Part shown: piece by piece, positions 4,779 to 23,917 of the stretch | Position numbering within the stretch: the first letter of the stretch is position 1 | How the letters are laid out: every line of letters begins with the position of its first letter | NCBI GenBank assembly: GCA_041650075.1 | Contig: JBAZLX010000001.1 | Span: 1-38,225 of the forward strand | Direction: 5' to 3' | Source: Bdellovibrionales bacterium | Lineage (GTDB): Bacteria; Pseudomonadota; Alphaproteobacteria; UBA9219 | DNA: 38,225 nucleotides | Notes under the pieces: generated by a model | The model's input: the letters and a program-made list of their open reading frames with translations, nothing else | Told to the model about the DNA's origin: nothing | Databases searched by the model: none | Program-made: the position numbers and the translations under genes

Positions 4779-4789
4779 ATTTCTTCCCT

Positions 4790-5440
4790 TTAGAATAATT
4801 TAGAAATTCCAGGCATCCCACCAACGCCAGCAAATAGCCCTGCGCCTTGGAGTAGAGTGTTAAATGACGATCCAGCAACTCCGCCTTGTGCCATTTGCCC
4901 TCCTGCAAGCGCCGCTCCTTGTTGCCCGTAGAGATTCGCTATGTTAGCCGCAGATGCTTGCCCTGCATTTGCTTGTAGCCCTGCCGATGATTGCCCTAAT
5001 TGTGATAACCCGCCTAGTTGCGCTAATTGTTGCTGATATGTTTGATTCAACAATTGTGGGGCGAGCATTCCCATAGCGGCTTGTGTGTTCCCGCCTCGTA
5101 GACCGCCAGTGGCAGAGGCATTTTGAAGCATTGCATTTTGCCCTTGCTGTAGCTGCGCTTGGAAGAATGGGCTTTGTTGCAATTGGTTAATAGCAGATTG
5201 TTGATCTGATGCTCCCCTTAGCCCCAGCAATGTCTGCTGTTGCCCCAGAGCCGATTCACCTGCTTGAAGGTATGGGGACATCATTTTTACGATAGCGTCA
5301 AACTGTCTTCGCTGTTCTTCTATGCCTGATTGTGCTGATGCCGCTTGTGTTCCTGCCGCTGCGGATGCCGCATCTGCCGCTTGGCTTGCTCCGGTAATGC
5401 CTCCAACGACATTGCCAAGAAAATCTCCTACAAAGCTCAT
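4790..5440 (-). CDS. Ejection protein, P22 gp7-like, Gln/Ala/Gly-rich
   Basis: Low-complexity Q/A/G protein containing ATGGLRGGN. The start at 5440 (MSFVGDF) was preferred: it forms an ATGA overlap with the upstream stop and has GGAG upstream. The track start at 5452 lacks an SD. Confidence 0.55.
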   Translation of the reverse strand: MSFVGDFLGNVVGGITGASQAADAASAAAGTQAASAQSGIEEQRRQFDAIVKMMSPYLQAGESALGQQQTLLGLRGASDQQSAINQLQQSPFFQAQLQQGQNAMLQNASATGGLRGGNTQAAMGMLAPQLLNQTYQQQLAQLGGLSQLGQSSAGLQANAGQASAANIANLYGQQGAALAGGQMAQGGVAGSSFNTLLQGAGLFAGVGGMPGISKLF

Positions 5441-5886
5441 TTGCTTCTCCATTCGGATTTTAATAATCCATAAATTTGAATATCCATAACCTTGCCGTTT
5501 AGCTCGAATGATTCTCTGATGGTTCCTTCATAAGAGAACCCGAGTTTTTTAACAAGATTTTGGATTGTTTTGAGATGGCTGTATATTTTAGCCGTCACCC
5601 TGTGCGCAGTCAGGAAAGCTTCATTTATTATGAGAACGCATAAATAACGATAATATTTTACCGATATAGGCAATAAAAGCAAATGGATTTCACTATCTAG
5701 CCTTGTATTGTTAATAATCATAAATGCGCCTACAAATTCTCCACTTACAAACGCCGAATAATACTTAACGCATGGGTGATCTATTTTTGAAACTGGAACG
5801 CCATCCCTAGAAAGCTTCTGAATAGATTCATCACTGAAAAGAACCTCTTCGTTTTCTTTGGATAGCCCAGCTTCTATTTTAATCAT
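5437..5886 (-). CDS. GNAT-fold-like protein in the slot occupied by P22 gp14
   Basis: 149 aa. The C-terminal half (HRVTAKIYSHLKTIQNLVKKLGFSYEGTIRESFELNGKVMDIQIYGLLKSEW) matches the RimJ/RimL-type acetyltransferase pattern, but the Q/RxxGxG/A acetyl-CoA loop is not evident. ATGA-type overlaps with both neighbours. Confidence 0.5.
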   Translation of the reverse strand: MIKIEAGLSKENEEVLFSDESIQKLSRDGVPVSKIDHPCVKYYSAFVSGEFVGAFMIINNTRLDSEIHLLLLPISVKYYRYLCVLIINEAFLTAHRVTAKIYSHLKTIQNLVKKLGFSYEGTIRESFELNGKVMDIQIYGLLKSEWRSK

Positions 5887-6221
5887 GACGTAATCTCTCG
5901 CCCTGATGCGCTAATAGTTAAAGCGGATGACGTTCCTGCAATCGTTGAGATAAACCCGCCACTCTCTAGCACTTGCCCCACTAACTCAGGACACGTATAG
6001 ACTTCATTTGGAGCGATTGACCTAGTTTTGATAATCAAGTTGCTATCCCCTGCCGATCCAGCTGAAGCGATCAAATTTACACTGATTGTAGCGTTTGACG
6101 CCGTTGTATTGGTAACTGTAAACTTATCGATTATCGTTTTGCAGTTTGTAGCCGTGTATTGTGCTGTTTGTGTGTTTTCCGCTTGCTTGCGGGGGATAAT
6201 ATTTTTAACTGTGACTGCCAT
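5883..6221 (-). CDS. Hypothetical virion protein, small and Thr/Ser/Ala-rich
   Basis: 112-aa ORF in the tail/ejection operon, translationally coupled to the downstream gene. No recognisable motif. Confidence 0.6.
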   Translation of the reverse strand: MAVTVKNIIPRKQAENTQTAQYTATNCKTIIDKFTVTNTTASNATISVNLIASAGSAGDSNLIIKTRSIAPNEVYTCPELVGQVLESGGFISTIAGTSSALTISASGREITS

Positions 6222-6230
6222 TTTAATTCC

Positions 6231-7520
6231 TTATTGTGCGATTTGAGATACTGCCATTATAACAGATGGGGTAGCTGGGGCAAACGCCGTAGATGGAGCG
6301 GCCTCAATAGTAACGTTTATATCGTCAGTTGCCCACATTGCCTCTATGTAGTCGCCAGCGTTCATACTAAAGAACATCGACCTAGAAACGCTTGCTGTGA
6401 CGCTAGAACCGGATATTGAAGCCTTCATTGCCGTATCTGCGATATCTGTGCCATTTTTGCGAGGCCAAAACCATAATGTTTTTGTAGATGCACTACCAGA
6501 TGTTATTTGTGCGGAGAAACTAAACTCATAAAGACCAGAGTTTGCACATACAATCCTTGACGTAGGTGTTCCGATAGATACCCCAAGAGATGCCGCCGAC
6601 GTATTAAATGTCAAGGCGTAAGCCGTATTGATTGCCGCCGCTGTTTGATCGGTACTATCAGAGAATGAGCCATAATACAGTTGTTGTTCGATAGTTGTGC
6701 GGACATATAGAATTCCAACTGTTGAGCTGTTATTTACTACTACTGCCATGGGAATACATTGGTTAGGTGCCGTTGGCTTTACGTTCGTAAGACCTCCAGC
6801 CGTTGTTGGATGAGCGTAAAGCAAATCGCCGTTATTCCATGTTTCAGTGTACGTTGATCCGCTTGCGTTTACGTCTCTTATGATTCCAGATACAGTTACG
6901 TGTCCGCTTGCCCCGATAGCAAAATCCTCAGACGCTATACCAACCAGTTGATGACTTTGGAGTGTCCCATTAGCGGTAAACTTAGCTAGATTTGGATCAA
7001 TTCCAGTTGCTCCAGTGTAGTAAACAACTTGCCCCTTTGATATGGTGACACCAGAAGTATTTGTGCCATGAATAATAATATCTAATCCCAATTCTTGCAC
7101 TAGACCGCCTATATGGGTGAATTGTAGATGCCCATACTGGTATCCCCAGTTGAGCGTCCCGGGCTGTTTAACTACTGTATGGGTGTTTCGCAATTGAATA
7201 TAATCGAGATCGGCTACTCTGTCGATTGACCTTGGTGGAGTTAGTAGCAGTTCATTGAGCATTGATCGGAGTGTTGCTACTTCTTCGGTAGAGTTTGGCT
7301 CTGTTGCCAAATAGTCTAAAGACTGCTGAATAGCAGAGATTAGTGCCAACGCCTCGCTTGCCGATGCTGATGCTGTTGCAGTATCAATTGCCACGCTTTC
7401 CAGATCTGTTGGGGTTTCTTTAGTAGCCATTTTAAACAGATTTTCAAACGCCTTGATAGTTTCAGGATTAGGGAGAAACTTCGCAAGCTGATTACGTGTG
7501 ATAATGATTTTATCAGACAT
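6231..7520 (-). CDS. Tail needle / fibre-like protein with a C-terminal globular domain
   Basis: It lies immediately after the gp10-like gene, as P22 gp26 does. Ala/Ser-rich helical N-terminal third, then a beta-rich C-terminus. The start at 7520 (MSDKIII) overlaps the gp10-like stop by 8 nt. The track start at 7544 is the alternative. Confidence 0.6.
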   Translation of the reverse strand: MSDKIIITRNQLAKFLPNPETIKAFENLFKMATKETPTDLESVAIDTATASASASEALALISAIQQSLDYLATEPNSTEEVATLRSMLNELLLTPPRSIDRVADLDYIQLRNTHTVVKQPGTLNWGYQYGHLQFTHIGGLVQELGLDIIIHGTNTSGVTISKGQVVYYTGATGIDPNLAKFTANGTLQSHQLVGIASEDFAIGASGHVTVSGIIRDVNASGSTYTETWNNGDLLYAHPTTAGGLTNVKPTAPNQCIPMAVVVNNSSTVGILYVRTTIEQQLYYGSFSDSTDQTAAAINTAYALTFNTSAASLGVSIGTPTSRIVCANSGLYEFSFSAQITSGSASTKTLWFWPRKNGTDIADTAMKASISGSSVTASVSRSMFFSMNAGDYIEAMWATDDINVTIEAAPSTAFAPATPSVIMAVSQIAQ

Positions 7521-9931: not shown

Positions 9932-10393
9932 TTATCCGATTCGAAACCAAGATAGTGCTGGCTTGTCATATTTTAGCGTAAAGAACGCATTCGCCGCCAA
10001 TGTCGTAGGCGCTCCAGTAACAGCCGTTGCTCCGTTTGCCCCGATGGTTAAAGTCGTTACAGCCTGAGTACAATTTACAAGCACCATTTGCCCATCAAGA
10101 CAGTTGGATGCCGCTGGTAGAGTGATCGTACCCGCCGCGAATCCTGCCGTTGGTGTGAGGATTAAGTGGATAGAGTCTTGGCTATCCGTTACCGACACAG
10201 TAAAGCCAGTTGCCGAAGGTGCAGAGTATTGTGTGATATACCCGCTCATGTTTGCGGAGATATTTGCCGTGATGTAGTCGGTGATCTCCGTTAGTGTGAT
10301 CTTTCGTGTATCCGCTACTCTTGGATCTGATACTGCGAAAACAAGCGCCCCGCTTACTGATGATACAGACGAATAATTGCTTATATATGCCAT
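9932..10393 (-). CDS. Hypothetical structural protein
   Basis: 153-aa Thr/Ala/Ser-rich ORF directly downstream of the gp4-like adaptor gene. Confidence 0.6.
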   Translation of the reverse strand: MAYISNYSSVSSVSGALVFAVSDPRVADTRKITLTEITDYITANISANMSGYITQYSAPSATGFTVSVTDSQDSIHLILTPTAGFAAGTITLPAASNCLDGQMVLVNCTQAVTTLTIGANGATAVTGAPTTLAANAFFTLKYDKPALSWFRIG

Positions 10394-10402
10394 GCGATTC
10401 CT

Positions 10403-10882
10403 TTAGTTAAATTGACCGACAACGCCATCGTTATCGCTTGGTAAATCTTCTGCTCTAAGAAGATAAGGAGAGTAGAATTTACGCCATTTATTCCCTTGCC
10501 CTGCTGGGATCGTTTGACTGCCTTGACGCTCTTGAATCGTCATATTTTTAGCCATTGCTACGTTAAACGCCCTAAATGCCTCTTGTTTCATCTCGGGGGC
10601 AATCTGCTTCCCAAATGCAGGAGCTAAGCGAATCGCAAGATTTAGATATACAGCTTCATTAACTGAATCCGGCACATTAGAGTCCTCATCTAAATCTCCC
10701 TCATTTGGGTTTGACGGGATAGGATAAGCAAGACGCATACCCTTAGCGTTCCATGTTGCCATCATAGCATCGAGACGTTTGCGCCCCATCTCTAACATTT
10801 CAGGGGGTAGATCGAAGTTATAGCTTCCTATTCCTATCTCCTCAAATGCGGAAAGTACGAATTGTCGTTTAGTCCACGACAT
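10403..10882 (-). CDS. Head-to-tail adaptor, P22 gp4-like
   Basis: 159 aa. FVLSAFEEIGIGS...RLDAMMATWNAKG...AVYLNLAIRLAPAF...IPAGQGN parallels remembered P22 gp4 (LVRAALRKLGVAS...DLEAMMAEWYQDG...VFHNLACRIAPDY...MPTGSGN). Confidence 0.75.
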   Translation of the reverse strand: MSWTKRQFVLSAFEEIGIGSYNFDLPPEMLEMGRKRLDAMMATWNAKGMRLAYPIPSNPNEGDLDEDSNVPDSVNEAVYLNLAIRLAPAFGKQIAPEMKQEAFRAFNVAMAKNMTIQERQGSQTIPAGQGNKWRKFYSPYLLRAEDLPSDNDGVVGQFN

Positions 10883-11168
10883 TTAGAGCCTCTTCGATCT
10901 TCGCCATTAAAGATTCATTTGTAGTTTTGTAATTAAACTTGATGCCGAGTTCTTTCGCTTTGACTTCCATCTCTTTGCGTGTAACGTCACCATCTAAATC
11001 CGCATCTCCTTTTGCTTCTGCATCTGCTACGGCTTCTTGAGCTGTGCGGAACCATCCATCGTTTAGCTTCTCTTCGATGTCATCCTCGTCAACGATAGCG
11101 GTATCATATTCGATACCTTCCCATTTAATTTCACTACCGAGCTTATAAAGCATTGTTGCGTTTTTCAT
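10869..11168 (-). CDS. Hypothetical acidic head protein with a C-terminal HeH/SAP-like helix pair
   Basis: 99-aa ORF between the decoration-like and adaptor genes, overlapping the adaptor start by 14 nt. Confidence 0.6.
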   Translation of the reverse strand: MKNATMLYKLGSEIKWEGIEYDTAIVDEDDIEEKLNDGWFRTAQEAVADAEAKGDADLDGDVTRKEMEVKAKELGIKFNYKTTNESLMAKIEEALNVVD

Positions 11169-11233
11169 TTCTTCTTACCTTTCTGATACGGCTTAGGCTT
11201 TGATTGCCCCATTTTCTTTTTATCACACGGCAT
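11165..11233 (-). CDS. Lys-rich 22-aa micro-ORF (MPCDKKKMGQSKPKPYQKGKKK)
   Basis: Hand translated. AAGGGGA lies 4 nt upstream of the ATG at 11233. Its TGA forms an ATGA overlap with the start of the 10869..11168 gene. Too short for the ORF track. Confidence 0.4.
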   Translation of the reverse strand: MPCDKKKMGQSKPKPYQKGKKK

Positions 11234-11281
11234 ATTATCCCCTTATGTTCTAAAGTTGGTACGAATACCGACTTATGAAAC

Positions 11282-11301
11282 ATAAGAGCCGAAGCTCTTA
11301 T
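11282..11301 (-). terminator. Stem-loop / intrinsic terminator candidate after the decoration-like gene
   Basis: On the minus strand: ATAAGAGC-TTCG-GCTCTTAT, a perfect 8-bp stem with a TTCG loop starting right after the stop codon. It is followed by GTTTCAT, so the U-tract is short. Confidence 0.5.
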
Positions 11302-11303
11302 TA

Positions 11304-12074
11304 TTAAGCGATATCGCCAACATTTGTCCAAAGCATAGTAATGGTTCCGGTAAACGTTCCGGTTCCTGATGTATGCGTTACATCATCTGCAACAACAACA
11401 TTTAGATAAACATCTTTGGCTGTTGCTGTACCGTTAAGCAATGTCATAGACGCTGAAGTCGCACCTACCGCAGCAACCTTAGTGGCAGCAGTTCCGTTCG
11501 CTACGGATGCCATAATGTCCGCTTCTGTTCCAGTGAGCGTTGCCCCAGTTGTAGCAGTAGCAGTACCAAGCGCAACGTTACTTGTAAACGCATTAATGAT
11601 TGTACCAGTGGTTCCGAGTGTTAAATTACCAGCCACAACACAGCCGACAACTGAAATCGCTCCTTCTGGAAGATCATAGATTTTTCCAGCTCCGCCGTAT
11701 TGCGCTACGCCTGCATCATCTGTAATGGTGATCGGTGTTGCCGTGAGTGTCAAAACTGTCTTATTAATAACTCCGTCTGAATATTCAGCGGCAGTAACGG
11801 TGCTTCCGCTTTTGATTCCCACATTCGTAAGCGTTCCGTATGTGTAATTTACTTCAGACGCTCCTGCCTCGATACGGATAGGGGTATTAATAGAGAACGC
11901 ATCTGATACATATTGAACGCCAGCCGTTGTAGTTGTCAATAGGTTCCATGAATCAGGGTGGTTTGTATAAGATACTTTTTGGTAAATCTTACAAGCGGTA
12001 TCACTGCGAACCTCTAGGCGACCGCCAGCATCAACAGTAAATTCACCTTTGCCAGTTGGGTAAACTTTTCCCAT
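11304..12074 (-). CDS. Putative capsid decoration / accessory head protein
   Basis: 256-aa Thr/Gly/Ala-rich ORF immediately after the coat gene and followed by a stem-loop. Assigned by position only. Confidence 0.45.
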   Translation of the reverse strand: MGKVYPTGKGEFTVDAGGRLEVRSDTACKIYQKVSYTNHPDSWNLLTTTTAGVQYVSDAFSINTPIRIEAGASEVNYTYGTLTNVGIKSGSTVTAAEYSDGVINKTVLTLTATPITITDDAGVAQYGGAGKIYDLPEGAISVVGCVVAGNLTLGTTGTIINAFTSNVALGTATATTGATLTGTEADIMASVANGTAATKVAAVGATSASMTLLNGTATAKDVYLNVVVADDVTHTSGTGTFTGTITMLWTNVGDIA

Positions 12075-12109
12075 GTTTTTTCCTTTGTTTTAGTTGCTAA
12101 CCGCTAGGG

Positions 12110-13375
12110 TTAGCTTTGAGAGAAGAGCATGATGCCCGACATTTCAGGGTTGAGATTTACAACACCGAATCGAGAGTCAAAACGATACTCATAGTTGAGT
12201 GTTTTGTTGTTAAGGAACTTGATCATTACAAGCTCAATACCCTGAGAAGTTGAACCGCGCATAACCTCAGCGCCTGAACCCGATTGAACTGGGATTGTAC
12301 CAGGTAGCAACTCAATAGAGTTTTTAGTCCAGAATGGGTTCATATAAGCACTAACGGTGTTCAAGAATACGATAGCCGCACCGTTTGCAGGTGTTGAATC
12401 TACGTTTTTGTAAATTTCTTCCGCAAGTGTTGATCCACCATTTGAAATAATAGCAGGGGTAATGGTTACAGTACCAGTTCCGCCAGCTCCAGTTTTAATC
12501 GCAGTGATACGGAATGTTTTCAACTGTGACGTTGCTTGCTTGGTGATGTGGTGAACTGAATATACCCCAGCGATAGTGAAACAATCCCCGACTTTAACTG
12601 TACCACTTGAAACAGTGATAGCAAGGTCTTGGAAGCGGTTATCTACGTTTGAGCGCTCACCAGTTGCAGCAGTACTTGTTGCGGCAGGAACATAATACTG
12701 ATTAGCACCGTTAATGGTTACAGATACACCAGCGGCGGCAGTTAGACGGTTGGTGTAGTTCAATTTGAACGTTTCAAACCCTGCGACATCTCCGACGTAT
12801 GATTTCTCATAAGCAGCCGTCGGCTTCTCGTTGATTGTCTGACGTGCAGCCAAGTTGCTTGCCATACCGTTGTAGTCACGAGCGGAAAGAGCCAAGCGGC
12901 GATCAAATTCATTAATACCAAGTTCATCAAATGTTGCAGACGCTTCCGCTACATCATCATAACCACTTGCGGCAGTCGTACGTTTAACTACAACAGATCC
13001 ATAAGCTGTGGCTGCATCAAGAACAGCACGGTTAACATCTGATCCGATCTTCTGACGTGCAGAATCACCAAGACGCTTTTCTTGCAACATATCACGGAGC
13101 TCAGTTGCAGTCATTTGCCACGGCACTGATTTGTGATATCCGATGGTAGCAGGGACAGACAATTGAGTGTATGATCCGAAATTACCAGTCTGATCAGAGC
13201 CGTCAAACGACTTAGCAACATAAGGTTGTGGACGCCAGATTTGGTCGCCTGAGCGCTCCATAATGGTTGGATCTGTTTTATAGATGTTGACGTTATGAGA
13301 CATTACCATTGCATCTTCAAAGCCTTCTAGGATTTGTTCAAAGGCAACCGTCTCTTGTTTGGAAAAATTAGACAT
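12110..13375 (-). CDS. Major capsid protein, P22 coat-like
   Basis: 421 aa, against about 430 for P22 gp5. The segment NVDNRFQDLAITVSSGTVKVGDCFTIAGV parallels remembered P22 [28 protein letters not shown]. It follows the scaffold gene. Confidence 0.85.
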   Translation of the reverse strand: MSNFSKQETVAFEQILEGFEDAMVMSHNVNIYKTDPTIMERSGDQIWRPQPYVAKSFDGSDQTGNFGSYTQLSVPATIGYHKSVPWQMTATELRDMLQEKRLGDSARQKIGSDVNRAVLDAATAYGSVVVKRTTAASGYDDVAEASATFDELGINEFDRRLALSARDYNGMASNLAARQTINEKPTAAYEKSYVGDVAGFETFKLNYTNRLTAAAGVSVTINGANQYYVPAATSTAATGERSNVDNRFQDLAITVSSGTVKVGDCFTIAGVYSVHHITKQATSQLKTFRITAIKTGAGGTGTVTITPAIISNGGSTLAEEIYKNVDSTPANGAAIVFLNTVSAYMNPFWTKNSIELLPGTIPVQSGSGAEVMRGSTSQGIELVMIKFLNNKTLNYEYRFDSRFGVVNLNPEMSGIMLFSQS

Positions 13376-13387
13376 TTAGTGATCTCC

Positions 13388-14221
13388 TTATTTCTTTTTG
13401 AGTGATCTTTTGTAGGCCATTAGTTTCGACGTATCGCCCGTTTTTGTAGCTTCTTCTCTTAATCGATCAAGAGTGGCATCTACTTTTTCGGAATGTGCCG
13501 AACCTTTGACAACTCGTTCGGGAGCTGGTGCCGTTTTGCGCGACACATTCAGCTTGCCTTGTAACTCAGCCAGAGCAAACGCAAACTTAATAGGGTTTGT
13601 GATCTTGGATAGCTCCTCAATCTTCGCCTTATTCTTTCCAAGTGCATAGACTACTGCCGCAGGGTTAGTGGCTCCTTGCAAGATTACGGCTTGCTGTTCA
13701 ATAGACAGTTTACCCGTAACCACTTCCTCTGCAATTTCGAAGTCTGGTACTTTTAAAGCGTTACGCGACGTAGTATATGCTTCAAGAGTATTTGACCACT
13801 CTTTCTGCTGTGCTTCTTGCACCTTAGCTTGCTCTTTTTGTCGTTCATCATGGACTAGCTTTTCGCTGTGCCATTTCTCGATTGCGGCCTCGTACTCTTC
13901 TGCATCATAATCAAAGTCTTCAAGTTTTGGCTTGATCGGAGCCGATACAGTTGTTTGCTCCGGCTGTTTAACTCGATTTAGCTCTTCTTTAAGCTTTTGA
14001 TTTTCCGCTTGTTGTGCGCGATAGCTTTTACGCAAATCGCGAACCCATGCAGGTGCTTTTTGCGAAACCTCTTCTTCTTGATCGGGAGGCGTTTCCCCAG
14101 CGATACTTACGACATCGATTTCTTCATCTTCCGCTTCTGAGTTTTCATCCTCATCGCTTCCGGTATCGATTTCAATATCCGTACCTTCTTCTACCATTTC
14201 GTCAAGATCGTCTTCTAGCAT
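13388..14221 (-). CDS. Scaffolding protein
   Basis: 277 aa, directly upstream of the coat gene. Very acidic N-terminus, charged helical core, basic C-terminus (KRSLKKK). Assigned by position and composition. Confidence 0.6.
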   Translation of the reverse strand: MLEDDLDEMVEEGTDIEIDTGSDEDENSEAEDEEIDVVSIAGETPPDQEEEVSQKAPAWVRDLRKSYRAQQAENQKLKEELNRVKQPEQTTVSAPIKPKLEDFDYDAEEYEAAIEKWHSEKLVHDERQKEQAKVQEAQQKEWSNTLEAYTTSRNALKVPDFEIAEEVVTGKLSIEQQAVILQGATNPAAVVYALGKNKAKIEELSKITNPIKFAFALAELQGKLNVSRKTAPAPERVVKGSAHSEKVDATLDRLREEATKTGDTSKLMAYKRSLKKK

Positions 14222-14249
14222 TTATTCTCCATTATTTTTGGGTATAAAA

Positions 14250-14278
14250 ATATTAGCGGTTTTTTGAATATGGCGCAA
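14250..14278 (-). promoter_or_regulatory. Candidate sigma70 promoter for the scaffold-coat genes
   Basis: Minus strand TTGCGC, 17-nt spacer, TAATAT, about 25 nt upstream of the scaffold ATG, which has a GGAG SD. Confidence 0.4.
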
Positions 14279-14299
14279 ATAGATTAAATCTTTAATGTT

Positions 14300-14327
14300 T
14301 TGTAAAGCAATAACGTGTTAATATAGT
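14300..14327 (+). promoter_or_regulatory. Sigma70-type promoter of the opposite-strand cassette
   Basis: TTGTAA, 16-nt spacer, TATAGT, followed by GAGGAG and the ATG at 14346. Confidence 0.55.
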
Positions 14328-14345
14328 GTCTTATGAGGAGATAAA

Positions 14346-14534
14346 ATGATGACAAAATATAGAGTGGTCTATAACCGAGGATGGTATTATCCCCAATTTA
14401 AGAAATGGTGGATGCCATTTTATGTGCCTTGCTTTTGGTTTGGGATGAATAATGATGATTATTCTACTTTGGACAGCGCTAAAAAAATAATAGCCTTGCA
14501 TAAAATTTCCGGGAAAACAGTATATGAGGAATAA
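14346..14534 (+). CDS. Hypothetical small aromatic-rich protein (cassette gene 1)
   Basis: 62-aa ORF with a strong SD (GAGGAG 5 nt upstream), on the strand opposite the surrounding structural operon. Confidence 0.6.
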   Translation: MMTKYRVVYNRGWYYPQFKKWWMPFYVPCFWFGMNNDDYSTLDSAKKIIALHKISGKTVYEE

Positions 14535-14544
14535 CCTTAAATGA

Positions 14545-14808
14545 ATGGACACCTTAATGAATAAAAAGACATATAAGAAAAAGCCAAAAGAGTGCGAGAT
14601 GTGCGGAACTGTCAAAGAAATGACGGCACGTGGGAAGTGGTGTTCCAATCGATGCAAGCAGGAAAACAAGAATAGTAAAAGTAAAAATGCCGTTGCGGTT
14701 TTGGATATTGTGAAATTCATGATTGTAGATGATCATAAGATAGAAGCATTTACTTGGGTGAATGACAAGCAGTTCAGTGAGATGTTCCCACCGATGCAAG
14801 GAGATTAA
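14545..14808 (+). CDS. Hypothetical zinc-ribbon protein (cassette gene 2)
   Basis: 87 aa with N-terminal CEMCG-x11-CSNRC. The start is uncertain (14545 or 14557). Confidence 0.55.
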   Translation: MDTLMNKKTYKKKPKECEMCGTVKEMTARGKWCSNRCKQENKNSKSKNAVAVLDIVKFMIVDDHKIEAFTWVNDKQFSEMFPPMQGD

Positions 14809-15162
14809 ATGACACAAAATGAAAATTTTATAAGAAAAGTTAAACAACTCGAGCAAGATTGTAAGCTTGGCAAAATGGAGGTAGAAGCTCTTATAGTTCC
14901 TGACATTATTGATTTGTCGTGCCATTCTGCGATAAGGATTAAATTGATTAATGGGGAATATGTTGATATTAGAATGCGGACTAGAATGTGGGAAGACACG
15001 CAACCACATAATTGCGAATATGGTGGGTACGGGGACGCTGTGACATATTGTACGGAGCTTGCCAATGGTTTTTTAGAGGTAGGTAATGATACAGGAAATG
15101 GAAACTTTGTAAACTTCTGCCCATTCTGCGGGTATGAAGCAAAAGTTAAAATAGAATTGTGA
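14809..15162 (+). CDS. Hypothetical Cys/His-containing protein (cassette gene 3)
   Basis: 117 aa, with AAGGAGA 7 nt upstream and the start abutting the previous stop. Contains PHNC and a C-terminal CPFCG knuckle. Confidence 0.6.
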   Translation: MTQNENFIRKVKQLEQDCKLGKMEVEALIVPDIIDLSCHSAIRIKLINGEYVDIRMRTRMWEDTQPHNCEYGGYGDAVTYCTELANGFLEVGNDTGNGNFVNFCPFCGYEAKVKIEL

Positions 15163-15171
15163 ACAAGGGAC

Positions 15172-17202
15172 TTATTGCCCCTCATTACCCATAGTCATCT
15201 CATTAATCTGTTTAGCTGTATTAATAATATGCTCTCTGCCTTGACGTGTAAGATTTGTTAGCGTCTCTTCTGTCTCTGCTTTTGTCTCTTCCGCCTTAGC
15301 CATTGCAAGTGCTGTGTCTGCTTGCGCCTTCATTGATTTCGCCTGAGCCTCTTGTGCCGCTGCTTGTAGATACTGCGCTTGCGGGTCTGGTTGCTGATTC
15401 TGCATCTCTGCGATAAGGTCTTGCTCTTCTTGTTTAGTAGGCGTTACCACTCCCATACGTAATAGTTGTTTGCGATAGTATTTACGGATATCCCCAAGCC
15501 CTTCTCCTTCCATGTTCATAAGAGCCGCAGCACCTAATACTTTTACATCGCTTGGGTCAGTTGTAATCTGCATCATGCCGGTTAGCGCACGAACTACTGA
15601 GGCCTTACGAGATGATGATGAAGGCCCAACATCTACGGAGATATCCATCTTGGCTTCAGATAGATCATTCTTTCTTTTGATAGTTCCTTCTTCATCGAAA
15701 ACCTGTTCGTTCAATTTTACATAATTAATTTCTTCTTGGGTTCCGATAGATTTCATTTTTCTATCATCTTCCACATAAATATCACTTGCCATCGATAGCC
15801 AAACCTTAGCGGCGTGCTTGATCGTTTTAGCAAAGTTAGACACATAGATGAACGATTGCATATCAAGACGGTTTTGAATCATCTCAACTGCTTTTCCTGA
15901 GATATTACTAACTACTTGCTCTCCTGCTTGCTGATTGCCCAAGATGTCATTCATGTCGGTATCTGATAGCTGGATCAATGCCGCTAATGTTGCCGGAACA
16001 TTCGGTGGGCGAACGTAATCTGTAGCTCCTTGATTTACACTATTTCCATTTGAGTCCATGACTGGGTTAATGAGCAAGTACGGATAATTCTTAACATCAT
16101 CTTCCGACCATCGCTGCTCATGACCTGCTACCTGTTCAGGAGTAAAAATAGGTTTTTCATAAGATGTTTTTGAACTGATCTCTGCAAGCTTTGAAATCTG
16201 CATATTTTTAAGACGTTGAGCATCTTTAACATATCTGATGGCTCCAGCACATCGCTCTACATTATCAATAAACCATCGTTGTCCGTAAAATGGAATAATA
16301 GGAATGTATTTGCCTGCAATGATCCCGCAATCTTCAATTACTCTTGCACCGTCTATAATGTATTTGTGTACTTTTTTACGCTTAATTTTGCGGGTACGTA
16401 CCTCTTTAAAGCCTCTATCATTTAATTCGATTAGTTTTTCTTCAGTAAGATCCGAGTGTTTATATTTTTCACTCTCTCCCATCATGCCTTCAAAGATATG
16501 AATCGTTTCGGTTTTCTCTTCAAACTTATAGTATTCAGCTACATACACAACTTCAGGGCTAAACCAGTCAAAATATCTCTGATGGATTGTCTTATAAAGA
16601 GATGATGGGAATTCCCCAAACTCTTCCTCGTATGCCTCTGGTGTTTTGGCGATCATAACAAAAGCATAGACCCCGTCCGATTTATCGTATCTTTTTGCAT
16701 TTAGGTCAAAGAATACAGACGTATCTGCGTCATAAATTGGCTCAAATAAAATGCGTTGCTTTTCGTTTTCGTCGTCCTCGTCGTCTTCGTAGTCTGAGCG
16801 CAAACGAAACGCACCGAATCCGCCCATACATCCTTCCTCAAAACAGTTGTCGTATGCTTCATCACCCTGACTGTCTTGTTCATCTGCACGGAATAGCCCT
16901 GCACACGTATCAGCTAGATCATCATACTCATCGCCCTCTTTGCTTGTAAACATTGCAGAGATTTTATTATTGCGATATTCTGAAAATATACGCTTGACCG
17001 CTAAATTGGCTTTATTTACTTCAATCTTCGGCTTATTCTCAAATTGTTCCCCGAGTGTGCCTTCCCATTGTGCACCTGGAATAGTGGCGAAGCGTCGGTC
17101 TTGTAAACACTGCATACGCTCGTCGCGCTGTACTTTTTGGATAATATCAAACGCTTTGATAGCTTCAGTATGAATCTGTCGGAGTTTTTCTTCTTTGCTC
17201 AT
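15172..17202 (-). CDS. Portal protein, P22-type
   Basis: 676 aa. GAFRLRSDYEDDEDD...EPIYDADTSVFFDLNAKRYDKSD and KRKKVHKYIIDGARVIEDCGIIAGKYIPIIPFYG...DAQRLKNMQIS closely parallel remembered P22 gp1 (GAWRLVTDYEDQ..., [34 protein letters not shown]...DGQRLRNMIMS). Confidence 0.9.
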   Translation of the reverse strand: MSKEEKLRQIHTEAIKAFDIIQKVQRDERMQCLQDRRFATIPGAQWEGTLGEQFENKPKIEVNKANLAVKRIFSEYRNNKISAMFTSKEGDEYDDLADTCAGLFRADEQDSQGDEAYDNCFEEGCMGGFGAFRLRSDYEDDEDDENEKQRILFEPIYDADTSVFFDLNAKRYDKSDGVYAFVMIAKTPEAYEEEFGEFPSSLYKTIHQRYFDWFSPEVVYVAEYYKFEEKTETIHIFEGMMGESEKYKHSDLTEEKLIELNDRGFKEVRTRKIKRKKVHKYIIDGARVIEDCGIIAGKYIPIIPFYGQRWFIDNVERCAGAIRYVKDAQRLKNMQISKLAEISSKTSYEKPIFTPEQVAGHEQRWSEDDVKNYPYLLINPVMDSNGNSVNQGATDYVRPPNVPATLAALIQLSDTDMNDILGNQQAGEQVVSNISGKAVEMIQNRLDMQSFIYVSNFAKTIKHAAKVWLSMASDIYVEDDRKMKSIGTQEEINYVKLNEQVFDEEGTIKRKNDLSEAKMDISVDVGPSSSSRKASVVRALTGMMQITTDPSDVKVLGAAALMNMEGEGLGDIRKYYRKQLLRMGVVTPTKQEEQDLIAEMQNQQPDPQAQYLQAAAQEAQAKSMKAQADTALAMAKAEETKAETEETLTNLTRQGREHIINTAKQINEMTMGNEGQ

Positions 17203-17239: not shown

Positions 17240-18607
17240 TCATCGGGCAAACGGAGAGTAAGTTGGAATGCTTTCAACTTTTATTTCTTTACGATCTATG
17301 ACGATTGGGAACATATATGCTATTGGGTATGTGCCTGCATCTGTGTAGTCGTCAACTGTCCCAGCCCCTGCAAACTTATCAGGCTCGCCATTCTGATTAA
17401 AAGCGTGTTGCTCTAGAGCATTGGTGAATTTTGGACATAATACTGTATTAACCTTTAGCCTCATTTTTTCAAATTGATTGTTAACGATATTGTGACGATC
17501 TTTTACAGATGGGTTACGACCATTTACAAACACTTTAAACCCTGCATTACGCAACATATTAATATCTGTCTGTGACGCAGATGTCTTTTTAGCGTTACCG
17601 CTTGCATCTGGGTATATATTTATGACTCTATCTTTGTATTTATGCTTTATGTTATCAATGATTGTCTTGGTGTCGTAGCTCTCAAACTCATTAACGGCTA
17701 TTAGCTCATCTCCTCGCTTAACATATACGATAGACACACACCCCCCGATATTAAAATCCTGCCCGATGTAGAGCTCTTCTATTGTATTATCAATTTCGAT
17801 AGAGTGATGAGTGGTTCGCTTGAAGTATTTATAGATTGTTCCACTAGTTAAGTTTATAAATTCGCCATTAACATAAGCCTCAAATAGCTCACTCGGGTAT
17901 TGCTCTCTTAGTGTATCAATAAAGTCATCTGGTAAATTATGTAAGTTTGAGTAGGTGGAAGCTCTAATTAGAATGTCTGTATCTGGATTAAATCTTGTCA
18001 CAAAACGATCATGAAACCATTTAAAACCCTCTGGCGTTCCGGCAACGTCAATAGAATTAACCCAACATAGTGCTCCAACTCCATTATGCCAATAAGTTCC
18101 TTCCGGGGTAATTCCTGTAGTAACAAATTGGTAAAGAGTATCTTCATCTTCCACTGGTACTACTAAACGATTCCGCCCCAATATCTTTTTAAACGCCTTA
18201 TCCATAATGTGACGCTTGGGGATGTCTGTCTCATCTATCAGTGTATATCCAACTTGATAACCCACAATGCTCTCAGGCTCACTTAGGTTGCGGAATAGGG
18301 TTGTCCCTATCTTTTCCCCGCTATCATATAGCGAGAACTCTTTATCTGTCTTATTAAGCTTATATTCATACCCAAGAGCGTCAGCCACCGTAGGGAATCC
18401 ATCGAACGCGATATCTCTAATATCTCCATATGTAGGCAAATAATAAGCTGTTTTTGGAATTCGATCATCTATAATTTTTAGAAGAGTTTTAAGAGTTCCG
18501 ATATAGCTTTTCCCGCTACCGAATCCAGCCACAAAGCCACTATGTTTTTTTCTTGAAGTTAAAAAGTCATATTGCGGGGCTGATAGCTCAATCGTTTCTT
18601 CTAACAA
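17240..18607 (-). CDS. terL: Terminase large subunit
   Basis: 455 aa. Walker A GFGSGKS, Walker B-like YTLIDETD, C-terminal nuclease-type acidic residues. It lies between the small terminase and portal genes. Confidence 0.9.
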   Translation of the reverse strand: MLEETIELSAPQYDFLTSRKKHSGFVAGFGSGKSYIGTLKTLLKIIDDRIPKTAYYLPTYGDIRDIAFDGFPTVADALGYEYKLNKTDKEFSLYDSGEKIGTTLFRNLSEPESIVGYQVGYTLIDETDIPKRHIMDKAFKKILGRNRLVVPVEDEDTLYQFVTTGITPEGTYWHNGVGALCWVNSIDVAGTPEGFKWFHDRFVTRFNPDTDILIRASTYSNLHNLPDDFIDTLREQYPSELFEAYVNGEFINLTSGTIYKYFKRTTHHSIEIDNTIEELYIGQDFNIGGCVSIVYVKRGDELIAVNEFESYDTKTIIDNIKHKYKDRVINIYPDASGNAKKTSASQTDINMLRNAGFKVFVNGRNPSVKDRHNIVNNQFEKMRLKVNTVLCPKFTNALEQHAFNQNGEPDKFAGAGTVDDYTDAGTYPIAYMFPIVIDRKEIKVESIPTYSPFAR

Positions 18608-19199
18608 TTGTCACCCGCTTTGTTTCGGTTTTGTTCCGCTGCGCATTGAGATTATTTATCTCGGTTTTTGGGGCATGTCTTTCCGATACTTTGAGGGTTA
18701 TAGATGCTTTATCAACAGCCTCAACATTATTCTTAATATCCATAGGATCTAAATCAATTTCAAATAGTTCTACAGTCTCACCGCATACTCTGCCTTCCCC
18801 GTCGTACTGCTTAACCTTAGTCATTGCCTTCTTAGTTCCTCTTGTAAGGGACTCATTGGCTCTTATAACTGCTAAGGCTTGCGTATTTAGTATTAAGCTA
18901 CTTAATCCAGTTTCTTGGGTTACTTTCTCATCAAGGATGGTGATCTCAAAGTCTGATAATGTTGCTACACGTTGCGAAACTGTAACCTTTTTTGCCTGAA
19001 TTGTAACGTTTTCTTTTTCAAGTGCGATAACGTCGGCTTTTATAGCTTGCTTCTCTGTAACCTTTTCCCAACCATTTTGTTTAGCTTTACGGCTTATTTG
19101 TGTATGAGATATGTCACAATCTTCTTCAATATCACGCAATGGATAGCCTAATTCAAATAAGAATTTTGCCCTATCCCATTGTTCCTTTGAATATGCCAT
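18588..19199 (-). CDS. terS: Terminase small subunit (HTH-containing)
   Basis: 203 aa directly upstream of terL and overlapping it. N-terminal HTH-like segment (LRDIEEDCDISHTQISRKAKQNGW). Confidence 0.6.
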   Translation of the reverse strand: MAYSKEQWDRAKFLFELGYPLRDIEEDCDISHTQISRKAKQNGWEKVTEKQAIKADVIALEKENVTIQAKKVTVSQRVATLSDFEITILDEKVTQETGLSSLILNTQALAVIRANESLTRGTKKAMTKVKQYDGEGRVCGETVELFEIDLDPMDIKNNVEAVDKASITLKVSERHAPKTEINNLNAQRNKTETKRVTIVRRND

Positions 19200-19878: not shown

Positions 19879-19906
19879 TGAAGTAAATTTGCACAAAGGT
19901 GTTAAC

Positions 19907-20254
19907 ATGGCTTCAAAAACATTATCGATTCTATTTATGGCTCGTGATATTGCACACAAAGAACATCTAAAAACTGGGAGTTATGCGCAACACATGGCGC
20001 TTGGTTCGTTTTATGAAGATGTAATTGGTTTGGCTGATAGCCTAGCCGAAGCATATCAGGGCAAATATGGCATTGTAAAGGAAATTCCAACTATTGCTTT
20101 AAAGGGGAATAAAAACATATCTGCACAGCTTAAAATTTGTGTTGAAATGATTGAAAAAGATCGCAACGAGTATGATCCGTTTTTACAAAATATCATCGAC
20201 TCTGCGATTGCGCTATTTTATTCTACTATTTACAAGCTAGATCATCTTAAGTGA
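19907..20254 (+). CDS. Hypothetical helical-bundle protein (Dps/ferritin-like pattern), opposite-strand moron
   Basis: 115 aa from MASKTLSILF. The helical pattern HLKTGSYAQHMALGSFYEDVIGLADSLAEAYQGKYG is reminiscent of Dps-type helices. The TTG start at 19889 in the track is unlikely. Confidence 0.6.
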   Translation: MASKTLSILFMARDIAHKEHLKTGSYAQHMALGSFYEDVIGLADSLAEAYQGKYGIVKEIPTIALKGNKNISAQLKICVEMIEKDRNEYDPFLQNIIDSAIALFYSTIYKLDHLK

Positions 20255-21943: not shown

Positions 21944-22494
21944 CTCATCCCCTTTTCTTTTGTTAAATTTCCGATCAAGTTTTTGCTCATAGAGCTTGCC
22001 AACGCTAAAGTTTTCCCGACATTATCACGCTCATATCGTTTCAGTGACTCGATAATTTTGCGCTCCAATGTGTTCGGTTCGGTCGTGTTGATCTTAATGA
22101 TTGCCTCACGCCCTCCGATTTCGTTCATAACATATGCCTGCTTATCGGTTAGCTGAAACGATTTACGCACGTTTAAAGCCATCATAAGGCGATAATAATC
22201 TTCACCCTTAGATTCTGACTCAGATAGTACGATTTTGTTTATATCGTGCATTAATGAAGCGATTACACGTGCTTCCGCTTCGTGGTCTGATTCAGGTGTG
22301 AACCGTTTCGCTACTATTGCCACGCGATCGATGCCTTTTTTGAAGGCGTACTCTTCTCCGCTTAGTGCTTTGAAGAAGTCTTTATACTGCGACGGCTGAA
22401 GCGGTGCAATGTATTCGGCTATTTCTGCATCGATGAACGTACCGTTAGGTATGGATAGCTTTGCTTTTATTTCGGTTATTAGTTGTGATTTCAA
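21940..22494 (-). CDS. Hypothetical protein in the replication module
   Basis: 184-aa ORF between the methyltransferase and ninG. No nucleotide-binding motif seen. Confidence 0.6.
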   Translation of the reverse strand: MKSQLITEIKAKLSIPNGTFIDAEIAEYIAPLQPSQYKDFFKALSGEEYAFKKGIDRVAIVAKRFTPESDHEAEARVIASLMHDINKIVLSESESKGEDYYRLMMALNVRKSFQLTDKQAYVMNEIGGREAIIKINTTEPNTLERKIIESLKRYERDNVGKTLALASSMSKNLIGNLTKEKGMR

Positions 22495-23156
22495 AACAAA
22501 CTCCCTTGCACCGCTTCTAGGCGTTTGTTTGCTATTGCTACGTAATCGGGTTCTAGTTCAGTAATACAAAAATCTAATCCTAAACTCTTGCAAGCAATAG
22601 CAGTAGTTCCGCTTCCACCAAATGGGTCAAATATTTTTGTGTAATTGTTTTTAACAGCGTAATCCCTCAAAATCATTTTAAATAATTCAACTGGTTTTTG
22701 TGTTGGATGGTGTCGTTCTTCTTTATTTGCCATATCTTGTTGTATAAAACCATCCCAAAGAAAAGAATATACATGAGAGTTATTATCAAATGAAGTCCAA
22801 GCGTGTTCACAATTTGCAAAAGTTCTATCTGGCATATTTGCATGTTTATACCAAGTAATCATACATCTAGTATTATACAAATGCTCTATAAAATAATTTC
22901 CGCCAAATATAATTTGATTTTTGCTTATCCTTTTAATTTCTTCAAATACTTCTTTGCTAGGTATATAGGCATCCCAATCTTTGGCACCAAAATCTTTTGC
23001 CTTACCTCTAAAGCTTCCACCCCCAACACTTCCTTTTGCCGCTGCGTTAATTCCATAAGGCGGGTCAGTAAGCACCAAATCAAAATACTTGTCAGGTACT
23101 TGCTTCATAAACTCCAAACAGTCCATATTGTAAATTTTGTTTAGTTCGTATTTCAT
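22491..23156 (-). CDS. Orphan DNA methyltransferase (N6A/N4C, beta-class motif order)
   Basis: DLVLTDPPYGI (motif IV) near the N-terminus and FDPFGGSGTTAIA (motif I) near the C-terminus. The start at 23156 (MKYELNKIYNMDC) forms an ATGA overlap with the upstream stop. No cognate endonuclease is nearby. Confidence 0.85.
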   Translation of the reverse strand: MKYELNKIYNMDCLEFMKQVPDKYFDLVLTDPPYGINAAAKGSVGGGSFRGKAKDFGAKDWDAYIPSKEVFEEIKRISKNQIIFGGNYFIEHLYNTRCMITWYKHANMPDRTFANCEHAWTSFDNNSHVYSFLWDGFIQQDMANKEERHHPTQKPVELFKMILRDYAVKNNYTKIFDPFGGSGTTAIACKSLGLDFCITELEPDYVAIANKRLEAVQGSLF

Positions 23157-23917
23157 CTCATCCCCCCATTTTCTTCTTCCCATTTTCTCTGAGCTTCCGC
23201 TAATTGAATTTCAAGCGTATCCTCCGCACTCATGCCGGTATGCTCTTGAATTGCTTTTGCTTTGTCGTAGTCTGATAATTCTACCTCATCGCTCCAGCGA
23301 CCTTCATTAATCCATGTAGTAGGGTGGCATACAAAACCATCGCGTACCGTCTTGGATAGTTTGTATCGTTGTACAGCTTCAAGTATCTCTTGAATGGATG
23401 GTTTGTTCTTCTTTTTCTTCCAAGCTATTAGTGCTTTATCTTTTCCGACTTTTTTAGGGTAGTGTTTCCAGAAGAGATCGAAGTCATTTTGATCTATATT
23501 CTCTACTATACTAACCTTACCTATACTATCCTCTCCTAGACTAGGCGTACAATTTGTATCCAAGTTGTATCCATCATTCAAAGAGTATGCGTTATTGTCC
23601 TTAATTACGAGCTTTGATCGCTCTTCAAAATGTGAAGAAACTTTAAATCTGTCATTTTGGATATAGTTATGGATACGCCAATGTTTAATTACAATGACAC
23701 CGCTTTCAAACGATAAAATAAACTTCTTTGCAATTAGCATTTGAGCGTCACCATCTGAAGCTCCTATCGTTCTCTGTATGCGCTTTGGAGAGTTTACAAA
23801 GCCCTCATCATCTGCCTCTAGTAAAAGATGGAAATAAAGGTTTTGCGACGTTGCCGGCATATCTAAAAATGCATCTGAGTGGATAATCTTTTTACTCATC
23901 ATTCTACGCTCCGCCAT
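23153..23917 (-). CDS. Replisome organiser / replication initiation protein
   Basis: The N-terminus SDAFLDMPATSQNLYFHLLLEADDEGFVNSPKRIQRTIGA...VIVIKHWRIHNYIQNDR matches the phage replisome-organiser N-terminal pattern. The C-terminus has FWKHYPKKVGKDKALIAW...TWINEGRWSDE. Confidence 0.7.
   Translation of the reverse strand: MAERRMMSKKIIHSDAFLDMPATSQNLYFHLLLEADDEGFVNSPKRIQRTIGASDGDAQMLIAKKFILSFESGVIVIKHWRIHNYIQNDRFKVSSHFEERSKLVIKDNNAYSLNDGYNLDTNCTPSLGEDSIGKVSIVENIDQNDFDLFWKHYPKKVGKDKALIAWKKKKNKPSIQEILEAVQRYKLSKTVRDGFVCHPTTWINEGRWSDEVELSDYDKAKAIQEHTGMSAEDTLEIQLAEAQRKWEEENGGMR

Follow-up and report, generated by a model that had tools for sequence, protein, structure and literature searches.

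We examined the region between the portal and scaffold genes in a 38,225-nt stretch of DNA (GenBank assembly GCA_041650075.1, contig JBAZLX010000001.1, positions 1 to 38,225; hereafter the window), which carries a lambdoid, P22-like podophage known from metagenomes. The portal stop codon and the scaffold start are 950 bp apart, and this gap holds three tightly packed open reading frames (ORFs) on the plus strand, o1, o2 and o3, which face the minus-strand late operon. In two related phages the same slot is occupied in the same orientation: a 124-bp control region and the zinc-finger module of o2 are conserved, and the genes around them are exchanged. Genes of the o2 type also recur in counter-oriented cassettes of other phages. 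We tentatively read the region as a self-contained accessory operon, set against the late operon in a standing variable slot of one P22-like lineage. By analogy with anti-CRISPR operons, o2 could be a nucleic-acid-binding autoregulator that acts on tandem repeats in the control region, a proposal we make with equal reserve.

Coding potential of the portal-scaffold gap

Codon usage was scored with a log-odds model built from 30 long ORFs of the window. The three plus-strand ORFs score 0.107 (o1), 0.273 (o2) and 0.252 (o3), compared with 0.311 ± 0.088 for the training genes and −0.139 ± 0.148 for shadow ORFs. The minus-strand ORFs in the gap (129, 151 and 126 amino acids, aa) score −0.31, −0.26 and −0.11; codon usage ruled them out as late genes co-oriented with the operon. 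Both GC skew and AT skew change sign over the cassette and GC falls to 0.33–0.39, with a cassette value of 0.359 vs 0.41–0.45 in portal, scaffold and coat. The same three genes are predicted by independent public gene callers. Codon usage, skews and gene callers thus agree with an earlier interpretation made from the letters and ORF translations only (the sequence-only reading), which had placed three small plus-strand genes in the 950 bp between portal and scaffold; o2 is 83 to 87 aa long depending on its start. By codon usage o1 is the least certain of the three, yet it has about 44 homologues.

Strong Shine-Dalgarno (SD) sequences had been ascribed to all three genes. This holds for o1 (GAGGAG, 5 nt before the ATG) and o3 (AAGGAG, also 5 nt before the ATG). 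No good SD was found upstream of o2, which is probably translationally coupled to o1.

A fixed core and exchanged genes in two related phages

The cassette has counterparts in two contigs that were reached only via exact-protein look-ups of distant o2 homologues. The first, L302, is a 7.3-kb SRA contig with 85% DNA identity to positions 9932–14350 of the window, a span that covers upstream structural genes, coat, scaffold and the sequence up to the end of the intergenic region. The second, L178, is a 1.2-kb ENA contig from a much more distant relative. The scaffold gene is 93% identical at the nucleotide level in L302 and 45% identical at the amino acid level in L178.

In L302 the homology ends at the o1 start, returns for 146 nt (84% identity) over the o2 finger, ends again and returns in the portal. 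At the o1 position (slot 1) a 125-aa Cys-rich protein with a membrane anchor is encoded, the C-terminal half of o2 is unrelated to that of the window, and the o3 position (slot 2) encodes a 47-aa CxxC protein. In L178, genes for a 25-aa hydrophobic peptide and an o2-type protein diverge from the scaffold gene on the other strand, followed by the first part of a gene resembling that for the 47-aa protein of L302. The C-terminal half of the L178 o2-type protein matches that of L302, and its finger is 60–66% identical in amino acids to the window finger. The 124-bp intergenic region can be aligned in all three phages. Identity over this region is 90% with L302; with L178 it is 75%, above the 66% of the adjoining scaffold coding DNA.

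Over the first 41 codons of o2, the window and L302 differ by 15 synonymous changes and one nonsynonymous change; this ratio indicates that the o2 protein is under purifying selection. Translation of o2 more likely starts at the ATG at 14557 (M5 of the longer form), as judged from the gene caller, which begins at M5, and from the L302 homology, which begins at 14555.

By these alignments the module consists of a fixed core (control region plus o2 finger) and two exchangeable slots, the exchangeable parts being o1, the C-terminal half of o2, and o3, of which the last two are exchanged together. Because the same counter-oriented slot is found in L302 and L178 with different flanking genes, the cassette is a standing variable locus and not a one-off insertion. 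The sequence-only reading had set its proposal against conservation of the same three genes across the clade; what was found is that o1, the C-terminal half of o2 and o3 are replaced in L302 and L178.

The window phage corresponds to JGI 3300035208 contig Ga0376279_0000728. Essentially the same phage is present in at least four further assemblies, with ENA ERZ27247363 and SRA SRR8542065 among its sources, and the same cassette in at least five contigs from different samples, which shows it to be stably inherited. The JGI and ENA copies are identical across the aligned 1.2-kb cassette region, and therefore offer no variation to analyze.

A 21-nt direct repeat (18/21 identical) lies within o2, at 14641–14661 and 14783–14803. 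The first copy encodes CSNRCKQ of the finger; the second, at the 3′ end of o2, would read CSHRCKE out of frame. The two copies bracket the variable C-terminal half, and the repeat may be a recombination or duplication scar.

The junction in the wider clade

Related loci were collected from GenBank phages, IMG/VR, GTDB genomes and JGI metagenomes; no portal in these collections shares more than about 60% identity with that of the window (62% on one fragment). Portal and scaffold genes are normally adjacent, as the sequence-only reading had assumed from P22-type head modules: the median gap is 47 bp in the 125 related loci with both genes, and it is below 150 bp in 105 of them (84%). A gap of at least 400 bp was found in 14/125 loci. 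These 14 loci represent 12 distinct inserts of 0.4 to 6.8 kb, which make the junction a recurrent insertion point across the wider clade. Eleven of the 12 inserts are plainly co-oriented with the late operon; the twelfth, in a high-GC locus, is ambiguous. Among the loci compared, opposite orientation is peculiar to the lineage of the window. None of the 168 loci of nearest-portal relatives encodes o1, o2 or o3. In the suggested synteny comparison the cassette genes are thus absent from the nearest-portal relatives, and the same counter-oriented slot with its conserved core is present in L302 and L178. No inverted or direct repeats of an invertible or transposable segment flank the cassette.

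Several other inserts at this junction were recorded. Multi-gene inserts of 2–7 kb, all co-oriented, are found in L057 (8217–10914), L123, L060 (3706–6528), L128 and L103 (10112–16923), and one of them includes a gene for a 1180-aa protein; on account of these inserts the junction can be called a general insertion hotspot in the clade. A single gene of one family, also co-oriented, sits between portal and scaffold in the distant relatives L025 (8027–8719), L052 (3370–4854), L106 (4748–5407) and L146 (6728–7714). Its N-terminus is conserved (MADPTIKDLAYRGLAS..GGPVDL..M.RPFGY) and its C-terminal parts vary widely (219–494 aa); conceivably the product is packaged or associates with the portal and carries a variable cargo. 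A 126-aa co-oriented insert in L076 shares an MTQ.E start and a YGG with o3, and this resemblance was dismissed (BLASTP E = 0.24).

Promoters and repeats of the control region

The control region lies between the divergent starts of scaffold and o1 (Table 1). Relatives without the cassette have no room for it, so it travels with the cassette module. On the minus strand, the candidate promoter TTGCGC-17-TAATAT matches 7/12 consensus positions, which is below the scan threshold. Its hexamers and 17-nt spacing are nevertheless kept in L302 (TTGCGC/TAATAT) and L178 (TTGCAT/TAAGAT), and this candidate, first noted in the sequence-only reading as a possible restart for scaffold and coat, gains weight accordingly. 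The plus-strand promoter proposed in the same reading, TTGTAA-16-TATAGT, was found by consensus scan at 9/12 positions and its −10 is conserved (TATAGT in the window, TATGGT in L302, TATAGT in L178); its −35 fared less well (see below).

A tandem direct repeat with an 11-nt period overlaps this −10. The pattern TAnnGTGTYA occurs twice in each phage, as TAAAGTGTCA/TATGGTGTCA in L302 and as two perfect copies of TATAGTGTCA in L178, and the second copy contains the −10-like hexamer. By its position and conservation the repeat looks like an operator overlaid on a promoter. The motif was also considered as a genome-wide operator and rejected, with 8 matches in the window vs 8.4 expected. A small palindrome at the center of the intergenic region is kept in L302 and partly kept in L178; being AT-rich, it counts as weak evidence.

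The o3/portal junction and the intergenic region fold no better than shuffled sequences (z-scores 0.45 and −0.75), and no known RNA family was found in the region. Scans of IMG/VR for intergenic motifs gave chance matches only (at least 120 for GCAAATAGATTAAA and three for CTCCATTATNTTTGGGTA), none of which encodes scaffold or cassette proteins. L302 has a hairpin with a 7-bp stem (AGCCTCA-CCTAC-TGAGGCT, 7100–7135) between the last cassette gene and the portal stop, which has no counterpart in the window.

o2 carries a predicted treble-clef zinc finger

The o2 protein has a basic N-terminus, a finger of the form C-x2-C-G-x11-WCSNRC, a basic helix and the variable C-terminal half. The finger module reads YKKKPKEC-x2-CG-x11-WCSNRCKQENKN. 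In the AlphaFold2 model a hairpin covers residues 9–22 and a helix starts at residue 31; the predicted local distance difference test (pLDDT) value is about 85–88 for the finger, and the C-terminal half is unstructured. The NCBIfam YacG profile NF002362 matched the finger only, at E = 0.002 and 17.8 bits vs a cut-off of 79, and the L302 counterpart was matched at E = 0.0038. Members of the o2 family also matched Pfam DUF2116 (“probable treble clef”) at E = 0.0016–0.11, all under the 26.8-bit cut-off. The top Foldseek matches of the finger were the FCS finger of L3MBTL2 (2w0t, E = 0.46) and YacG (1lv3 and 4tma, TM(target) 0.37–0.61); at E values of 0.5–3.5 they are not significant. These fold matches agree with the sub-threshold sequence hints, and we tentatively assign the modeled finger to the FCS/YacG-like treble-clef class. 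The predicted fold and the basic flanks point to nucleic-acid or protein binding.

The likeness to YacG, FCS and DUF2116 proteins lies in the C4 treble clef and in a second knuckle (W/F/Y)CSxxC(K/R) at the helix start, and these families gave the best sequence and fold matches of o2, though below threshold. In contrast to them, o2 has scores far under the cut-offs of these families, it lacks the tail with which YacG binds GyrB, the flanks are strongly basic, and in three phages there is an extra variable C-terminal half. No match of o2 to a helix-turn-helix (HTH) or ribbon-helix-helix (RHH) family was found, nor any Pfam match to Ogr/Delta (PF04606) even at E ≤ 1. A relation to the zinc finger of the NinG protein encoded in the window was dismissed (E = 0.14).

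Only six o2-type proteins were found among 5.8 billion sequences. Finger-only versions of 48–50 aa exist (P0013 and P0051), which argues that the finger alone is a functional unit. In 6/6 cases the o2-type gene is opposite to the flanking structural or packaging genes (in L178 only the scaffold-side flank is available). In L303, a siphophage-type contig, the gene belongs to a small cassette among head-tail genes. In L304 and L308 it belongs to small cassettes set against TerL; where the contig extends far enough, an HK97-type portal is seen on their other side. The small genes beside the o2-type gene differ between L303 and L304. Perfect TTGACA-17-TATAAT promoters precede the cassettes of both (L303 5720–5760; L304 2975–3005), and their spacers are similar (CGCAATTCTAAATGCGT and CGCATTTCAAATTAGTG, respectively); the L303 spacer holds a short inverted repeat, ACGCA...TGCGT.

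o1 and o3 belong to uncharacterized families

The word-indexed search with the three concatenated proteins gave no matches; homologues came from an exhaustive HMMER search. o3 has a lineage-specific N-terminus with a helix and a 54-residue zinc-ribbon-like C-terminal domain with the motif H-x-C...C-x-E...G-x-L-W-V-G-N...V-N-F-C-P-F-C-G-Y. The sequence-only reading was correct in seeing Cys motifs in two of the three proteins, namely CxxC-x12-CxxxC in the o2 finger and this HxC...C...CPFCG pattern. The o3 domain family has at least 675 members at E ≤ 1e-3; every one of them is annotated as hypothetical, and most stand alone as proteins 60–100 aa long. Weak matches to PF22400 (DUF6980) were seen for 12/30 family members (best E = 1.3e-3) and to phrog_4030 for 13/30, together with generic zinc ribbons; o3 itself has no Pfam match to DUF6980. 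The restriction alleviation protein Lar (PF14354) was matched by four of the 30 members at E ≥ 0.044 and by the slot-1 protein of L302 at E = 0.068, none of these above threshold. The o3 model has pLDDT values of 86–95 over residues ~71–117. The domain had no fold match in the PDB, where the sequence profile gave only generic CPxCG knuckles, and the only significant fold match in BFVD is one uncharacterized phage protein.

Members of the o3 family are found in an early-gene array (L171), in an accessory cluster after a P22-type portal (L173/L174) and beside VapBC in a bacterial chromosome (L175). The L173/L174 cluster (3630–6455) consists of about 2.8 kb of small co-oriented genes directly downstream of the portal and before a scaffold-like gene; it includes a 64-aa o3-domain member and a 143-aa Fic-like protein. 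o1 belongs to a small phage protein family (phrog_8363, E = 7e-4) with the pattern KYRIV..GYEVQ.RYWWMPFWVQ... Its relatives lie in early-gene arrays (L177) and, in L309, amid lysis and tail genes, where the single o1-type gene has the opposite orientation. Neither o1 nor o3 has a membrane segment. As judged by gene context, the payload families behave like accessory genes: widespread, small and located in phage accessory regions.

The profile and structure searches recommended in the sequence-only reading thus yielded relatives for all three proteins and the FCS/YacG-like hints for o2, but nothing significant to a characterized family. Its statement that none of them matches a recognized family needs amending in that all three have relatives, in uncharacterized families.

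A proposed mechanism and its alternatives

The operon that we tentatively propose might work as follows. Host RNA polymerase would start at the cassette promoter early in infection and small payload proteins would be made, which most likely would act on host functions or host defenses; exclusion, anti-defense or host modulation, the roles suggested in the sequence-only reading, may all be considered. The basic zinc finger o2 would accumulate and bind nucleic acid, its likeliest target being the TAnnGTGTYA tandem repeats over the cassette −10. It would then shut the cassette off before head-on late transcription passes, by the same logic as the Aca (anti-CRISPR-associated) repressors of anti-CRISPR (acr) operons. 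The outward minus-strand promoter would restart scaffold-coat transcription and offset the polarity of the counter-oriented insert. The need for shut-off would be acute because the cassette is head-on to the late operon, lacks a terminator and runs into the portal, and for that reason we favor o2 as an autoregulator of the tandem repeats. Expression early in infection is judged more likely than expression from a prophage, given that there is no terminator and no integrase among the ORFs scanned.

Several observations weigh against this proposal. The plus-strand promoter is weak: the region has 4 promoter-like matches vs 6.1 ± 2.3 in shuffled sequences, no more than chance would give, and conservation does not extend to the −35, where L302 has TTATTA instead of TTGTAA. 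No terminator-like site was found in 13300–16000. The cassette GC is inside the range of the phage's own early region, and 11.5% of all 950-bp segments of the genome, most of them from the early region, are at or below the cassette value. The exact module is present in only three phages, and with the few o2-type proteins found, small numbers stand behind the associations. The repeats are direct in the window and inverted in the L303/L304 spacers, so that no common o2 site is established. FCS fingers can bind RNA and YacG binds protein, and DNA binding by o2 is presumed. Searches of PADLOC, Pfam, NCBIfam, PDB and BFVD gave nothing significant to a characterized anti-defense, exclusion or regulator family.

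The sub-threshold YacG matches raise the alternative that o2 is itself a conserved effector, a YacG-like protein binding a conserved host protein (e.g., DNA gyrase) or host RNA, and that its neighbors are independent passengers. The profile hits of o2 and its L302 counterpart (E = 0.002 and 0.0038), the YacG structures among the top Foldseek matches, the finger-only versions P0013 and P0051 and the strong purifying selection on the finger are all compatible with it. We consider it unlikely. In E. coli YacG the finger is followed by a tail (LIDLGEW...) that contacts GyrB, but o2 continues with KQENKNSKSKN after the last Cys and has no hydrophobic or Trp-containing tail of this kind. The score of 17.8 bits is far under the curated cut-off, the fold matches are not significant, and the basic flanks look more like nucleic-acid binding. 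If o2 were such an inhibitor, it would be a compact phage-encoded host-takeover factor.

The moron-type insertion put forward in the sequence-only reading was upheld in part: there are extra counter-oriented, low-GC genes in a tight junction, but the insertion is not unique, has no terminator, and comes without an integrase among the ORFs scanned. A classical moron for lysogenic conversion, expressed from the prophage and giving superinfection exclusion or another host benefit, appears quite unlikely as an explanation of the locus. Neither a tRNA nor an attachment feature was found in the window, nor any integrase among its larger ORFs (not every ORF was scanned), and the contig is a complete circular assembly; no terminator-like site was found in 13300–16000; and the window payloads o1 and o3 lack membrane segments. 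What agrees with a classical moron is the position on the opposite strand inside the late operon with a promoter-like site and a GC below that of the neighbors, the membrane-anchored or hydrophobic slot-1 products of the relatives, such as exclusion proteins often are, and the lambdoid features of the genome including an Ant/Rha-like regulator.

P22 assembly requires much more scaffold and coat protein than portal protein. The cassette might accordingly serve head assembly or late control, with o2 as a zinc-finger activator of the scaffold-coat promoter, comparable in principle to Ogr/Delta. The minus-strand promoter before the scaffold is conserved and travels with the module, and o2 is the sole cassette gene conserved with it. 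We nonetheless hold this to be very unlikely, because 84% of the relatives assemble without such genes at the junction, o2 has no Ogr_Delta match in Pfam even at E ≤ 1, in unrelated phages o2-type genes have different neighbors and are located between TerL and portal or within a head-tail gene cluster, and the flanking cassette genes are freely exchanged.

That the ORFs are non-functional filler, either chance ORFs or a decaying remnant in a non-coding spacer, is hardly credible and is contradicted by the evidence: the borderline o1 score (0.107) and the lack of a characterized family for any of the three proteins would suit it, but o2 and o3 score inside the gene range with antisense ORFs negative, each of the three has homologues elsewhere, the synonymous to nonsynonymous ratio of o2 is 15:1, and the cassette is identical in at least five independently assembled contigs.

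Comparison with known phage loci and significance

Morons, in the sense that Juhala and co-workers reportedly gave the term in 2000, are extra transcription units that separate genes which are direct neighbors in relatives (e.g., lambda bor; HK97 and HK022). Like them, the cassette adds small genes to a junction that is tight in most relatives, has a promoter-like site and a composition unlike its structural neighbors, and is oriented against the late operon, as bor is. Unlike them, it has no terminator, and prophage expression is doubtful with no integrase among the ORFs scanned. Its slot is a conserved core (control region and zinc-finger gene) with exchangeable genes rather than a single self-contained insert, and the module brings an outward promoter for the downstream late genes.

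A second parallel is found in acr-aca operons. In those operons a strong early promoter would damage the expression of neighboring essential genes if Aca did not shut it off, and acr loci in Mu-like Pseudomonas phages lie among head genes. The cassette, too, is embedded among head genes; its variable small payloads adjoin a single conserved small gene whose product is a putative nucleic-acid-binding protein, the conserved repeats over its candidate promoter are a candidate operator, and the o2-type relatives in other phages stand behind perfect sigma-70 consensus promoters. It differs in that o2 has a predicted treble-clef zinc finger in place of an HTH or RHH fold, the o2 gene is in the middle of the operon instead of at its end, the cassette is head-on to the structural operon, and searches of Pfam, PHROGs, NCBIfam, PDB and BFVD found only uncharacterized relatives of the payloads and none like a known Acr. 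In published acr-aca operons, variable acr genes are accompanied by a small conserved Aca protein that represses a strong early promoter (PMC13551039, PMC9410906). Most Aca proteins are of the HTH type, with one RHH case, and a 2026 survey left zinc fingers in this role as an explicit question (PMC13551039).

One may ask, then, whether o2 is the first zinc-finger “Aca-like” autoregulator, marking self-promoted, counter-oriented counter-defense operons inside structural gene clusters of several unrelated phage types. We think this rather doubtful. If true, it would provide a new guilt-by-association handle for anti-defense genes, and the o1 and o3 families, together with their replacements in the relatives, would be new anti-defense or host-takeover proteins. 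The question whether such operons can be under zinc-finger control (PMC13551039) would be answered as well.

The immI region of P22 (mnt-arc-ant with the sar antisense RNA) is located inside the late operon between gene 16 and the tailspike gene. It resembles the cassette in being a small regulatory or accessory unit with divergent promoters in the late operon of a P22-like phage. The locations differ, since the cassette is between portal and scaffold, and the proteins are unrelated (RHH repressors and an antirepressor in immI); the Ant/Rha-like gene of the window lies elsewhere (24148–24813).

Taken by its sequence features, the cassette would be a moron or an anti-defense-type accessory locus, unusual in its zinc-finger core, its head-on placement in the head module and its outward restart promoter. 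Phage loci with a fixed core and exchangeable payloads are the source of most new counter-defense proteins, and so far they have been recognized via HTH-type (and one RHH-type) Aca genes. If o2 is a regulator, the marker set for such loci becomes wider and several payload families are added, one with at least 675 members. The module may also show how a phage tolerates a head-on insert in its late operon, in that the insert would bring its own outward promoter for scaffold and coat.

Phage genome and other features of the window

The ends of the window are an exact 127-nt direct repeat (1–127 and 38099–38225). Such a terminal repeat is the signature of a circular assembly and indicates a complete genome of about 38.1 kb. 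Beyond the coat gene the right arm continues on the minus strand with tail-accessory and ejection genes. The o3 and portal genes are convergent with 9 bp between their stop codons. The features of the region are listed in Table 1.

Table 1. Positions of the cassette, its control elements and the flanking late genes in the window.
Feature	Position	Strand	Remarks
Conserved divergent regulatory region	14222–14345		124 bp; GC 0.258
Candidate outward scaffold-coat promoter	−35 TTGCGC 14278–14273; −10 TAATAT 14255–14250	minus	17-nt spacer
Palindrome ATTAAA-TC-TTTAAT	14283–14296		center of intergenic region
Candidate cassette promoter TTGTAA-16-TATAGT	14300–14327	plus	consensus scan, 9/12
Tandem direct repeat TAACGTGTTA / TATAGTGTCT	14311–14331	plus	11-nt period; overlaps −10; candidate operator
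o1, variable slot 1	14346–14534	plus	61–62 aa
o2	14557–14808	plus	83 aa from conserved ATG (87 aa from ATG 14545)
o2 zinc-finger module	14557–14700	plus	conserved cassette core
o3, variable slot 2	14809–15162	plus	117 aa
o3 C-terminal domain	14998–15162	plus	residues 64–117
P22 coat	12110–13375	minus	
Scaffold	13388–14221	minus	downstream unit of late operon; phrog_648 head scaffolding protein, E = 1.8e-47
P22-type portal	15172–17202	minus	PF16510, E = 5.8e-150
terL	17240–18607	minus	right arm
terS	18588–19199	minus	right arm

Three further genes were noted in the window. In the early region, an N6/N4 DNA methyltransferase (22491–23183, minus strand; PF01555 by precomputed annotation) and the Ant/Rha-like regulator mentioned above (minus strand; phrog_373/518) are additional candidates for counter-defense or regulatory functions. 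A second counter-oriented gene is found in the minus-strand arm at 19889–20254 (plus strand), between the terS region and nin-like genes. Its product has 121 aa (115 aa in the gene call), its coding score is 0.32, and precomputed annotation assigns it to PF19174 (DUF5856); a further moron-like insert may be present here.

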